Positions 59,565 to 64,000 of a stretch of DNA of 64,000 bases are shown here, in pieces. Numbering within the stretch: position 1 is the stretch's first letter; every line of letters begins with the position of its first letter. The notes under the pieces were generated by a model. The model did no database searches, had not been told where the DNA came from, and saw only the letters and a program-made list of their open reading frames with translations. Source of the DNA: an uncultured Planctomycetota bacterium. Its GTDB lineage: Bacteria > Planctomycetota > Planctomycetia > Isosphaerales > Isosphaeraceae. The position numbers and the translations under genes are program-made. The DNA lies in contig CAVTTN010000002.1 of the NCBI GenBank assembly GCA_963737655.1, positions 224,001 through 288,000 on the forward strand. Reading direction: 5' to 3'.

Positions 59565-59628
59565 GGTGCATGGCACTGGTGAGCATTTCTGGGTGCCACT
59601 GGTCGTACTCGACCAGTGCCATGCGCCG
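59565..59628. repeat. REP-like palindrome
   Basis: GCATGGCACTGGT (59568-59580) / ACCAGTGCCATGC (59612-59624), with nested hairpin CACTGGTCG-TACT-CGACCAGTG. Confidence 0.6.
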
Positions 59629-59674
59629 TCGTTGCAATCGGCGAAGCAACGAGGAGAGAATCCCGAAAAAATCC

Positions 59675-59769
59675 TTGCAAGGCGAACTCCCCGCCGGCAA
59701 AATCAATCACCGGTCCGAGATTATCCATCCGAAACGACGTGATAAACCGCATCATTTCGGACGTATAAT
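59675..59769 (+). promoter_or_regulatory. Candidate cassette promoters (Pc-like)
   Basis: TTGCAA(59675)-N17-CAAAAT(59698) and a perfect TATAAT at 59764, upstream of the first cassette. Confidence 0.45.
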
Positions 59770-59802
59770 CCCGCAGATTCGGAGATTCTGCGTCACTTTC
59801 GA

Positions 59803-59821
59803 TGTCTACTTCATGTTAGGC
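59803..59821 (+). other. attI-like primary recombination site
   Basis: TGTCTAC-N5-GTTAGGC, the 7-5-7 simple-site geometry. This first GTTAGGC core is not preceded by an attC stem. Confidence 0.6.
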
Positions 59822-59840
59822 GTCCTGCAAATCGTGGTGC

Positions 59841-59993
59841 CTATAGCGATATCTTTCCGGTCAGGAGCATCCAACTCCGAATCAGGGTCAGGACGAGACA
59901 CGTCAACATCCCCGCCCAGGCCCACCGGAACGTCGGCCGCCACTCCGGCCGTAGTTCTTCCATCGCCCACTGCCGTCTCAGCCAAGCGACCAT
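59841..59993 (-). CDS. Cassette A: 50-aa putative membrane peptide in reverse orientation
   Basis: MVAWLRRQWAMEELRPEWRPTFRWAWAGMLTCLVLTLIRSWMLLTGKISL fills the non-attC part of the cassette (59816-60090). Confidence 0.45.
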   Translation of the reverse strand: MVAWLRRQWAMEELRPEWRPTFRWAWAGMLTCLVLTLIRSWMLLTGKISL

Positions 59994-59996
59994 GAC

Positions 59997-60096
59997 GCCT
60001 AACCTCGCGCTGCAGCGGACCCGCAACCGCCGCCACGATTGTTGTAGTCTCAACACAACTCAGGCGGGTGCGGGCCGCTGAGCTTGGTCGTTAGGC
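59997..60096 (+). repeat. attC site 1 (100 bp)
   Basis: GCCTAAC-CTCGC-GCTGCAGCGGACCCGCA...TGCGGGCCGCTGAGC-TTGGTC-GTTAGGC. Confidence 0.93.
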
Positions 60097-60754
60097 GGCT
60101 CAGGAGTCGAAGCCTTCGGTCGTGCTCGTCGTCGGCCTCGCCGGTCGCGCCTCGGCTCGACGACGCCATCGGTCGGGCCCCTGGAGTCGGCCTCGGCGGT
60201 GGTGCGCGTCGTCGCCCTCGCCGGCCGCGCCCCCGAGGTCGGGCCCGTCGGCCGGCGCCCCCCTTGCCAACGCCGTCGGTCCGTGCCAGGATCGTCGGTG
60301 TCGGCGCGTGGGGCGTCGCCGGGGCGCCGCCTAACCCGGCGCTGCAGCGGACCCGGCCCGCGGTCGACGATCACTCTCCTCTCAATCTCGCCGGGCGCGG
60401 GCCGGTCCGCTGAGCTTTGTCGTTAGGCGGCTCAGGAGTCGAAGCCTTCGGTCGTGCTCGTCGTCGGCCTCGCCGGTCGCGCCTCGGCTCGACGACGCCA
60501 TCGGTCGGGCCCCTGGAGTCGGCCTCGGCGGTGGTGCGCGTCGTCGCCCTCGCCGGCCGCGCCCCCGAGGTCGGGCCCGTCGGCCGGCGCCCCCCTTGCC
60601 AACGCCGTCGGTCCGTGCCAGGATCGTCGGTGTCGGCGCGTGGGGCGTCGCCGGGGCGCCGCCTAACCCGGCGCTGCAGCGGACCCGGCCCGCGGTCGAC
60701 GATCACTCTCCTCTCAATCTCGCCGGGCGCGGGCCGGTCCGCTGAGCTTTGTCG
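60091..60754 (+). mobile_element. Cassette B, two tandem 332-bp copies (60091-60422, 60423-60754), apparently gene-less
   Basis: Direct repeat with period 332, bounded by GTTAGGC cores; only low-complexity GC-rich ORFs. Confidence 0.85.
60329..60428 (+). repeat. attC site 2 (100 bp)
   Basis: GCCTAAC-CCGGC-GCTGCAGCGGACCCGGCCCGCG...CGCGGGCCGGTCCGCTGAGC-TTTGTC-GTTAGGC. Confidence 0.93.
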
Positions 60755-61052: not shown

Positions 61053-61148
61053 CCTCGCGCTGCAGCGGACCCCGCACCGCCGCAACGGTTTATGCTATGA
61101 TTCAACGTCGCTCGGGCGGTGCGGGTCCGCTGAGCTTCGGCGTTAGGC
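61047..61148 (+). repeat. attC site 4 (102 bp)
   Basis: GCCTAAC-CTCGC-GCTGCAGCGGACCCCGCACCGCC...GGCGGTGCGGGTCCGCTGAGC-TTCGGC-GTTAGGC. Confidence 0.93.
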
Positions 61149-61417
61149 GTCCTGCAAATCGTGGTGCCTATAGCGATATCTTTCCGGTCAGGAGCATCCA
61201 ACTCCGAATCAGGGTCAGGACGAGACACGTCAACATCCCCGCCCAGGCCCACCGGAACGTCGGCCGCCACTCCGGCCGTAGTTCTTCCATCGCCCACTGC
61301 CGTCTCAGCCAAGCGACCATGACGCCTAACCTCGCGCTGCAGCGGACCCGCAACCGCCGCCACGATTGTTGTAGTCTCAACACAACTCAGGCGGGTGCGG
61401 GCCGCTGAGCTTGGTCG
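61143..61417 (+). mobile_element. Cassette A', second copy of cassette A (275 bp; reverse ORF 61168-61320)
   Basis: Matches 59816-60090 at an offset of 1327. Confidence 0.9.
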
Positions 61418-61423
61418 TTAGGC
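61324..61423 (+). repeat. attC site 5 (copy of attC 1)
   Basis: Same sequence as 59997-60096. Confidence 0.93.
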
Positions 61424-61440
61424 GGCGGAGGCTTTGTCCC

Positions 61441-62211: not shown

Positions 62212-62645
62212 AAAATCTAGGAATGCCATTCAGCGTCAGTTCAATTTAGCGGCTCCGGCCGATCCGCCTCTTCGTGAACTCTTTGGCTGGGAACGGCCAT
62301 CGACGCGCAACACTACCCCAACCCCAGGCTTTGTGGCCGGGCAGCGGCGAGGTCCGGGTAGCAAACCGACGGATTCAAGAGCGGCGGACGAGGCGCGGGC
62401 CGAGAGGGGAGTCGGTTACGTTTGCAGTCTCTTCGACGGGAACATCCCCGCGAGTCGGCTCGCGGGGCGTCGCCAATGACCGGATCACGACCTCTCGGGC
62501 CAGGCTAACCTACGGGCAGGGAGCACCAAGGTGGAGACGGCCGGGAGGCCCGCGCCACACTCAGGCTACGCCGCGCCGGGTCGGCGGGCAAGTCGTCCCC
62601 GACCCCCGTTCACGCCCCGTCGGGAGCGGACGAAGGCCGCAGGAT

Positions 62646-62707
62646 GGTTAACCTTGCGCTGCAGCGGACCCCGGCCACGGGCCGCGCTTTCTCATTCTCA
62701 CAAGCTC
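62646..62707 (+). repeat. Truncated attC site 6 (left arm only)
   Basis: GGTTAAC-CTTGC-GCTGCAGCGGACCCCGGCC... has the same left arm as the other attCs; the right arm is missing. Confidence 0.8.
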
Positions 62708-62888
62708 GGAGGGTCAAAAAGGGGACGGGAGGGTCAAAAAGGGGACGGAGCGAATAAATTCAGCTTTTTGCATTTTGCCGCGTCTCATCCAGGCCGAACT
62801 TATTCACTCCGTCCCCTTTTCGGCCCCACGTCCCCTTTTCGGCCCCACCGTCCCCTTTTCGGCCCCACTCCGTCCCCTTTTCGGCCCC
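62708..62888. mobile_element. Hairpin (REP/MITE-like) element with tandemly iterated ends
   Basis: Inverted repeat 62737-62764 / 62793-62820 (25/28). Left end GGAGGGTCAAAAAGGGGACGG occurs twice; right end CGTCCCCTTTTCGGCCCC occurs four times. Confidence 0.75.
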
Positions 62889-63601
62889 GGCCAAGACGAC
62901 CCGGAGGCGCTGGCGGAATTGGCCAAGGGGCGGCTGCGGGCCAAGATCCCGGCGCTGCGGCTGGCGCTTCGCGGGAAGGTGACCGAGCACCACCGCTTCC
63001 TGCTGCGGCTCCTGCTGGACCACTACGAGGCGCCGGAGGCCCTGATCGGCCGACTGGGGAGCGGATCGACCGGGTGCTGGCGCCGTACGCCGAGGCGGTG
63101 GAGCGGCTGGAGACGATCCCCGGGGTCGGCCGCCGGGTCGCCGAGATCGTCGTCGCGGAGCTGGGCGTGGAGATGGGGCAGTTCCCGACGGCTCGCCACC
63201 TGGCGAGCCGGGCCGGGATGTGCCCCGGGAACAACGAGAGCGCCGGCAAGCGCCGCAGCGGCAAGACGACCAAGGGGAGCCGCTGGCTACGGACGGCCCT
63301 GATCCAGGCGGCGCACGCGGCGGGCCGGAGCAAGGCGACGTATCTGGGGTCGGGGTACCGTCGGCTGGCATCGCGGCGCGGGGCGAAGCGAGCGGCGGTG
63401 GCGGTGGGCCATACGCTGCTGGGGATCATCTACGAAGTCCTGGGCCGGGGGACGACCTACGAGGATCTAGGCCCCTGCTACCTGGAGCGGTTGGAGCCCG
63501 AGCGATTGACCCGGCAACTGGTCAGGCGCTTGGAACGGCTCGGCCACAAGGTTACATTGGAACCCAACGAGGCGGCCGCGTAGGGCGCATTTTCAGAACA
63601 G
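62889..63601 (+). mobile_element. IS110-family element remnant: 5'-truncated, frameshifted transposase (stop at 63583) plus a short end
   Basis: DPEALAELAKGRLRAK...HHRFLL, then after a shift near 63058 LETIPGVG...AELG...FPTARHLAS.AGMCPGNNESAGK...AVAVGH...YEDLG. The N-terminal DEDD domain is absent; the end reads ATTTTCAGAACAG. Confidence 0.9.
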
Positions 63602-63618
63602 GCGGCGGAGGACGGCGT

Positions 63619-64000
63619 ATGGCGAAGGCTCGTGTATCGGACGTCTTCTCCGCGTATCGCCTCTCCGGCGAGCCTATTCCCGGCGATGTCGCGATCCTCC
63701 TGAAACAAGCGGAGGAACTGGCCGAGCGCTCGGGGATCGAGCTGAACTGGAAGAAGGTCTGGTCCCCATGGTCCGATACGAGCTATCTCACCAAGTCGGA
63801 CCGCCAGAACCCAGATACCATGGCCAACGTCCGGGCGATTGCGGATGTGTGCAAACTGGTCGCATTCGTCGCCGCGACCGACGAGGATGAGTGCATCGGC
63901 TACTGGCGAGGTCCGCGCATGCGTCCGGTCAAGAACTCCCCACTCGTCCTCTTCGACAACGAGGGGCAATTCACGCTATGCGGCTCCAGTTTCACCGAGG
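63619..64000 (+). CDS. Cassette E: hypothetical protein, SMI1/KNR4 (SUKH) immunity-like; runs off the window edge
   Basis: Manual translation: MAKARVSDVFSAYRLSGEPIPGDVAILL...FVAATDEDECIGYWRGP...SPLVLFDNEGQFTLCGSSFTE, preceded by AGGCGGCGGAGG. Not in the ORF track. Confidence 0.7.
   Translation, partial: MAKARVSDVFSAYRLSGEPIPGDVAILLKQAEELAERSGIELNWKKVWSPWSDTSYLTKSDRQNPDTMANVRAIADVCKLVAFVAATDEDECIGYWRGPRMRPVKNSPLVLFDNEGQFTLCGSSFTE

Follow-up and report, generated by a model that had tools for sequence, protein, structure and literature searches.

How did an IS110-group transposase gene come to end exactly on the AG of an integron core, and does the element to which it belonged seek such cores? 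The question is raised by the far end of the window (the whole 64,000-nt stretch of DNA analysed here, G000:C2:224001-288000), which lies in an integron cassette array. The array head is a copy of an intI leader with attI, and no intI is adjacent to it. Judged by the named transposases that match most closely, the host is probably a planctomycete. The positions of the relevant features are collected in Table 1. A sequence-only reading had placed the IS end on the AG and had noted that cassette E keeps its core from AGGC onward while the GTT is replaced by the IS end. The letters read as described, and the same type of junction was found in a full copy of the element. The right end that follows the TAG stop (63581-63583) is as short as had been claimed.

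Table 1. Coordinates of the features surrounding the IS110-group junction (positions within the window)
Feature	Position	Strand	Remarks
Array head: copy of intI leader with attI	59628..59821	+	core (59815-59821) unoccupied; 195 nt align with the intI leader at 89.7%
Unoccupied target used for comparison: R' of an attC, then the cassette D start	61417..61431	+	cassette D opens with GTTAGGCGGCGGAGG at 61417
~380-nt miniature of a second IS110 type in R'', separate from the first element	62269..62647	-	28 genome copies
Left arm and loop of the attC preceding the IS; right arm (~38 nt) gone	62648..62707	+	by comparison with 7 sister attC sites that are complete
181-nt imperfect hairpin of tandem 20-mers	62708..62888	.	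replaces ~820 nt: right arm of the attC, left end of the IS and codons 1-181
3' part of IS110-group transposase gene, codons 182-412	62889..63583	+	98.6% identical to full copy G000:C2:4847050-4848544; 1-nt deletion in G run at 63055
Right end, 16 nt	63584..63599	+	sub-terminal CATTTTCA at 63588-63595; same end in the three minis and in the full copy
Core dinucleotide AG (CT on opposite strand, as in IS621)	63600..63601	+	AG at both full-copy junctions and in 2/3 minis
Start of cassette E, GCGGCGGAGG	63602..63611	+	with the core pairs 9/9 to first target guide, two G-U wobbles allowed
Cassette E ORF, ~190 aa, runs off the window	63619..64000	+	ATG at 63619

The ORF remnant in the window encodes an IS110 transposase (Pfam Transposase_20, E 4e-21) without the N-terminal DEDD domain. 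The window copy is dead and unable to move by itself: the first 781 nt of the element are missing together with ~38 nt of the right arm of the upstream attC, and its left flank is lost. The upstream attC was destroyed by this deletion, not by the insertion of the element. The 1-nt deletion in the remaining gene causes a frameshift and may be a consensus error. The 20-mer hairpin is REP/REPIN-like; all three of its copies (in the window and at G000:C2:1680716-1680926 and C2:6792332-6792452) lie at deletions of ~0.8-1.2 kb in IS110 DNA, and 93 instances of its 10-mer unit were counted on C2. An Rfam scan of the window gave no match, and no Pfam match was found in the 126 aa of the cassette E ORF that were scanned. 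The attC of cassette E is cut at R'' by a full second-type IS110 element at C2:288183. Duplicated cassettes are also present in the window: a 332-nt cassette in tandem at 60071-60702, with more copies in other arrays, and a short cassette found twice (59815-60104 and 61142-61431). Since AGGCGGCGG is so frequent on this GC-rich contig (794 occurrences, and 52 of the 12-mer, both strands counted), the window junction alone is weak evidence. What raises it above chance is the second copy, a full one, which likewise ends at this AG, followed by the same 10 letters but by another cassette.

The full copy is 1,495 nt long, and its locus shows, in order, the flank CCACGTT-AG, a 238-nt left end, a 412-aa gene, the 16-nt right end and AG; the family medians for the two ends are 237 and 28 nt. 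It begins after GTT-AG and has AG at both junctions without further duplication; the downstream cassette differs from cassette E yet opens with GCGGCGGAGG. Its gene encodes a DEDD/Ser recombinase in which D12, E63, D99, D102 and S299 align with the catalytic residues of IS621. Three 89-nt miniature copies (minis) were found in the same genome, at 1121472, 4298507 and 689554. In each, a spacer joins the opening 44 nt of the left end to the right end; both ends are thus kept, and the minis are probably mobilised in trans. One of them has GG, not AG, at its left junction; AG stands at both junctions in most minis, and most homologues have an AG core. All three minis end in CAGAACAG and each has another continuation, so the element ends at 63601 and the GC-rich letters beyond do not belong to it, contrary to a possibility that the sequence-only reading had left standing. 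The same reading had seen no sub-terminal inverted repeat. An 8-bp one does exist, CATTTTCA in the right end against TGAAAATG at left end +32 in the full copy; it is asymmetric, its arms being set back by 4 nt at one end and by 31 nt at the other. A mini variant that opens with GC instead of TC recreates the full core (L131, G003:C59:686-735; L123, G003:C138:1048-1186), and one GC-opening mini carries a second mini inserted in front of it.

The left end of the full copy is predicted to encode a bridge RNA. It contains CGTCGTCGCCT at +90, the complement of the core and the right flank (first target guide), GTGTTAG at +117, identical to the left flank and the core (second target guide), and CAGAACAG at +179, a donor guide that equals the right end. 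The two letters after the target guides copy the first two of the left end, which is the handshake position. Read on the strand opposite to the gene, the left end has the IS621 layout with CT core and handshake letters. A reading on the gene strand as in IS621, with the first target guide placed 3' of the second, was rejected since that segment is invariant across targets; the opposite-strand layout fits. Together the two target guides spell GTGTT-AG-GCGGCGG, the integron core plus cassette start, which agrees with the claim that the element is programmed against GTTAG-GC. The first guide pairs 9/9 with AGGCGGCGG when two G-U wobbles are allowed, and the second pairs 7/7 with 3/4 of the known left flanks in G000. 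Pairing is poor at the right flanks of three minis, where the first guide reaches 3-5 of 9, and at one left flank (5/7). A promoter-like pair of hexamers was also noticed by eye inside the left end.

The sequence-only reading had proposed folding the upstream end to look for a target-binding loop. The guides match the target; the single-sequence fold was no better than that of shuffles (z -0.21). The consensus fold of 54 left ends gave two stem-loops with internal loops, partly pairing the two target guides. Guides and flanks were then compared across homologues from GTDB (78 loci), relatives and metagenomes: 109 loci had a readable loop, 65 of these had a distinct left flank, and 57 remained after near-identical proteins were collapsed. 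Over these 57 elements, whose kin are not independent, the second guide agreed with its own flank in 4.32 of 5 letters (shuffled 2.11, best shuffle 2.63), and with GTT guides removed in 4.35 against 1.50 (23 elements). The corresponding values were 2.21/4 against 1.15 for the first guide (29 elements) and 1.88/2 against 0.93 for the handshake letters, and none of 2000 shuffles reached the observed means. By eye, the donor guide matches the right end in homologues as well. No left-end RNA, circle joint or empty-site read was seen in the contigs of relatives and four sequencing runs. The contig of a 92-96% identical relative (run X1; 24 differing letters in 556) extends 7 letters past the right core, over a GCGGCGG flank.

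The 5' half of the donor loop showed no IS621-type pairing with the first letters of the left end (+1..+7; 1.16 versus 1.23 shuffled). This part of the loop copies the left end at +20..+28 in the same sense, behind a small hairpin (L001:570-580 and L001:690-706, both in the left end of the full copy), with 6.4 of 9 letters in agreement against 4.98 in shuffles and 5.4 in the best shuffle (43 elements, kin not independent). The minis retain +20..+28, and the copy in the donor loop suggests a discontinuous donor site.

The genome of the window contains one intI (C2:6777135-6778073, above the TIGR02249 cut-off) and 54 canonical attC right ends; attI sites were assigned by position and homology. 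A copy of its leader with attI, without intI, heads several arrays in addition to that of the window (G000:C2:1121473, 1672900, 1969655, 5876319 and 5884895), and four attI copies were seen in G003, a genome of the same genus (90% aa identity). Of the G000 copies, the full one occupies a degenerate attI head, and the minis are located in an attI copy, in an attC R' and at a cassette start whose left side is not att. In G003 the full copy lies in an attI-like site, and minis were found in three attI sites (the one next to intI and two further copies, one of which has a tandem pair), as well as at a cassette start and, by eye, inside an ORF and beside a tRNA-like sequence. Single minis were located in a perfect attC of the complete integron of G136 and, in G008, at a site without visible att features. 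The full copy of G138 (82% aa identity) was left out of the site count because its contig keeps only the GTTAG of the flank.

Altogether 11 of the 14 sites in this nearest clade are associated with integrons (6 attI-type, 2 attC R' and 3 cassette starts, the tandem counted once) and 3 lie outside them. The left flank ends in GTTAG at 12 of 13 sites where it is known and the right flank opens with GC at 11 of 14; of the 62 cassette starts scored in G000, 60 open with GC. All att-associated copies are on the sense strand and follow the GTTAG of R' or attI. The arrangement GTTAG/IS/GC that had been foreseen for homologues is present, but only 2/14 sites are attC, and with 6/14 being attI-type, core- or attI-targeting is a better name than attC-targeting. 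Occupancy points in the same direction: attI-type sites were filled in 2/8 cases against 1/55 attC in G000 (p 0.04), in 3/4 against 0/8 in G003 (p 0.018) and, pooled with G136, in 5/13 against 2/87 (Fisher p 3e-4), where the attC pattern misses variants, head copies may share a mini by descent and copies may share insertions by descent. The preference would be explained by a better fit of the guide to attI than to R' or R'': in G000 full pairing was obtained for 7/7 attI copies, 17/55 attC R' and 0/22 R'' on the other strand. The integron-core preference is real, programmed by the predicted RNA and, in the nearest clade, strongest for attI.

GTTAG guides are common to the three nearest proteins (82-100%), which group on one branch (SH-aLRT 99; trees were built by FastTree and quick IQ-TREE, with eight tyrosine-recombinase loci excluded). 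Relatives at 50-72% identity mostly have other guides. That homologues insert in unrelated sequences, which the sequence-only reading would have taken as contrary evidence, is true for most of these, yet they do so with matching guides. By eye, their targets are the ends of other IS110 copies, REP-like repeats and intron-like ends; within the subfamily, intron-like ends (L024, L025), right ends of other IS110 copies (L012, L018, L042) and a GGTGTCAG repeat (L093, L096, L142) appear as programmed targets. The guide pattern was absent from 400 other genomes of the phylum, a strict left-end pattern matched in 4/121 genomes of the family, and a plasmid collection yielded no relative above ~54% over the full length.

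Metagenome elements were picked by guide pattern only, which gave at least 121 loci; among the matches listed, 44 have a downstream transposase and 42 of 46 readable left flanks end in GTTAG. Among the same listed matches, 37 distinct flanks of at least 100 nt could be classified: a rule test called 10 of them attC (shuffles predict 0.03; sensitivity 52/55, and 14/584 on other GTTAG) and a folding test 12 (1.1 expected), and 27 were not called attC. None of 22 elements with other guides passed the rule test. As in the other counts, related elements are not independent here. Further attC sites in the flanks, which are short, were no commoner than for other guides (2/34 versus 1/23 loci). A score of the metagenome flanks in R'' orientation was dropped because mostly the same hairpins were scored again. 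One locus of the metagenome set (L160) lies beside a divergent intI fragment.

The called metagenome attC elements with full proteins fall in a second, separate soil clade with GTTAG guides, found in attC R' in at least 10/37 cases. A tree holding both GTTAG-guide clades together was rejected (AU p 0.0012; the group was named after an earlier tree), hence the GTTAG guide setting has more than one origin or was passed from one element to another. Such guides occur in several parts of the tree, with at least 8 changes forced in one tree and 4 in another; the placement of the partial frames L105, L117, L214, L104 and L042 is unreliable. Core targeting reflects how the guides are set, a state at which a broad family has arrived repeatedly, and is not a property of one transposase lineage. 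The suggestion of a separate lineage stands insofar as the element falls outside the IS1111-attC group, and does not stand as regards the target.

The window copy is very probably, as judged from these sequence comparisons, a dead, 5'-deleted IS110-group element of the bridge-RNA kind whose intact kin are guided to the integron core. By analogy with the work on IS621, a complex of recombinase and RNA would excise a circle and recombine it into 5'-RYGTT-AG-GCGGCG-3', a word that in these genomes is mostly the integron core. The element lands 4 nt past G|TT, oriented along cassette transcription and adjoining the 5' end of the cassette that follows. Its left end opens with TC (CC in the second clade), so that the core reads GTTAGTC, 6 of 7 letters, and the site may stay usable; if it does, the element would travel with its cassette.

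The nearest known counterparts are the IS110-group bridge-RNA recombinases IS621 and ISCro4 (accessible parts of PMC11208160 and PMC13626964; PDB 8wt6, 9t56). Shared with them are a long left end with a two-loop RNA, a short right end, a 2-nt core that reads CT on one strand, target guides overlapping at the core, handshake letters, and the DEDD and Ser residues. Compared with IS621, the protein is distant (E 1.6e-9) and has a C-terminal extension, the CT core is on the strand opposite to the gene, the target is the integron core rather than REP, and the 5' half of the donor loop copies +20..+28 of the left end in the same sense; the hexamers seen by eye inside the left end and the 89-nt minis are further differences. 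On its sequence the element is a member of the IS110 group.

The IS1111-attC group (ISPa21, ISPst6, ISKpn4, ISPa25) is likewise of the IS110/IS1111 superfamily, RNA-guided and found in integron recombination sites. Its members insert antisense near the 5' end of attC (PMC3001079) and carry the RNA downstream of the gene (PMC11187229), as stated in the accessible parts of these papers; the group is further defined by near-symmetric sub-terminal inverted repeats of 7-17 bp. In an ISKpn4-family example the insertion lies ~8 nt after the AAC of R'' and ~250 nt of non-coding DNA follow the gene. The present element is found at the 3' core or attI, on the sense strand, with its RNA upstream, and it departs from the group in three defining features. 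Group IIC-attC introns are also mobile and home to cassette sites; being retroelements that insert antisense near the 5' end of attC (PMC3001079, accessible part), they have no mechanism in common with it. Twelve unlabelled 31-nt targets of IS621 orthologues in the accessible part of Durrant et al. (Supplementary Data 2, target_seq136-146 and 257) resemble attC R' ends by eye, at a length too short for a test. They are centred on the GT at the crossover, whereas the element is centred on AG, and the attC label is absent from the parts of that work covered; targeting of R' by the IS110 group may thus already lie within public data. In the literature covered, including 10.1101/2024.02.09.579496, PMC9229058 and PMC4889954 (subscription journals, ISfinder and the original IS1111-attC descriptions being mostly outside this coverage), no IS110-group element at attI or attC R' was found. 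The known RNA-guided mechanism, acting as predicted at this site and in this direction, was not found described in print.

A second IS110 type (450 aa, ~33% to the first; six full-length genes and one partial) occupies R'' boxes on the opposite strand together with its 380-nt miniature; a full element lies, e.g., at G000:C2:288183-289990 (-). The miniature has a bridge-RNA-like region with an AGGTTAG guide, and one of its junctions reads AA, the opposite one AG. Since this type sits in R'', the two types share the same heptamer, one per box.

The junction at 63601 might have been an accident, a hairpin-linked deletion or a misassembly having joined an IS fragment to a cassette start. The left part of the window copy is missing, the adjoining letters are as common on the contig as described above, no sequencing run with the G000 genome was found (best share 0.13), and the window and full copies differ at several places by CTGG/CCGG swaps or a G-run change, as long-read consensus errors would produce. 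The deletion, however, lies 700 nt to the left of the junction, and the full copy as well as minis in three other genomes have the same type of junction with different cassettes. These independent copies largely refute an accident, which is very improbable. Still less credible is a divergent member of the IS1111-attC group: the protein superfamily, the integron target and a sub-terminal inverted repeat are shared, but the long non-coding end lies upstream and not downstream, the insertions are in R' or attI on the sense strand rather than at the 5' end of attC, and the ISKpn4-family protein (L281, one reference), alignable at ~33% over 72 aa only, is placed on a far, long branch of the tree.

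The remaining alternatives concern the reason for the guide setting and its consequence. The element could be seeking a short word without any tie to the integron, integron sites simply holding most copies of that word, 96 of 139 GTTAGGC being inside arrays that cover ~1.2% of the genome. The sites outside integrons in the nearest clade, the scatter of GTTAG guides over the tree, the metagenome flanks not called attC and 16/32 best-matching G000 sites outside the attI and attC patterns would all agree with this. The mechanism would be the same, only the reason for the setting being different; against it, the 14 nt spelled jointly by both guides comprise core and cassette start, three genomes at 82-90% aa identity retain the setting while letters outside GTTAG drift, and a second clade has the same setting in attC sites of unrelated sequence. 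A word search of this kind is considered possible and not probable. As to the consequence, the sequence-only reading had expected insertion to block cassette excision, and a related proposal is that insertion inactivates the site, thereby locking the cassette downstream in place or shutting attI. A core altered at position 6 is indeed unusual, 53 of the ~60 canonical R' boxes in G000 being exactly GTTAGGC, the G136 site with the element folds less stably by 4 kcal/mol, with 5+2 R pairs in place of 9, and no element-bearing cassette was seen at two places. On the other hand, IntI crosses over at G|TT and tolerates imperfect R boxes; the insertion point 4 nt beyond leaves this crossover, the L boxes and six of the seven core letters untouched, R''/R' pairing persists in the folded bottom strands of G136, L210, L240 and L175, though not of L263, and the GC-opening mini in the attI beside the G003 intI restores GTTAGGC (one case). 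Blocking of excision is thus unsupported and inactivation is rather doubtful; hitch-hiking is, on sequence grounds, a fair alternative to blocking.

A wider proposal can be put forward tentatively, with the odds against it as a whole: several IS110-group lineages may independently have set their bridge RNA to the integron core, docking past an intact crossover, coming under the cassette promoter at attI, being pushed into the array by new cassettes and riding cassettes between genomes, and the subfamily may read its donor discontinuously across an extruded hairpin.

The integron-targeting elements of the IS110 family found in the accessible literature are of IS1111 type and split attC near its 5' end. 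The attI sites are unknown for most integrons (PMC4889954, accessible part), and the guides of the present element mark attI sites. For bridge-recombinase engineering, the subfamily is a useful source of natural guide-target pairs, of which there are many, and of minimal donors 89 nt long. An IS110-group element at the crossover core, above all at attI, could gate the capture of cassettes or hitch-hike with them.
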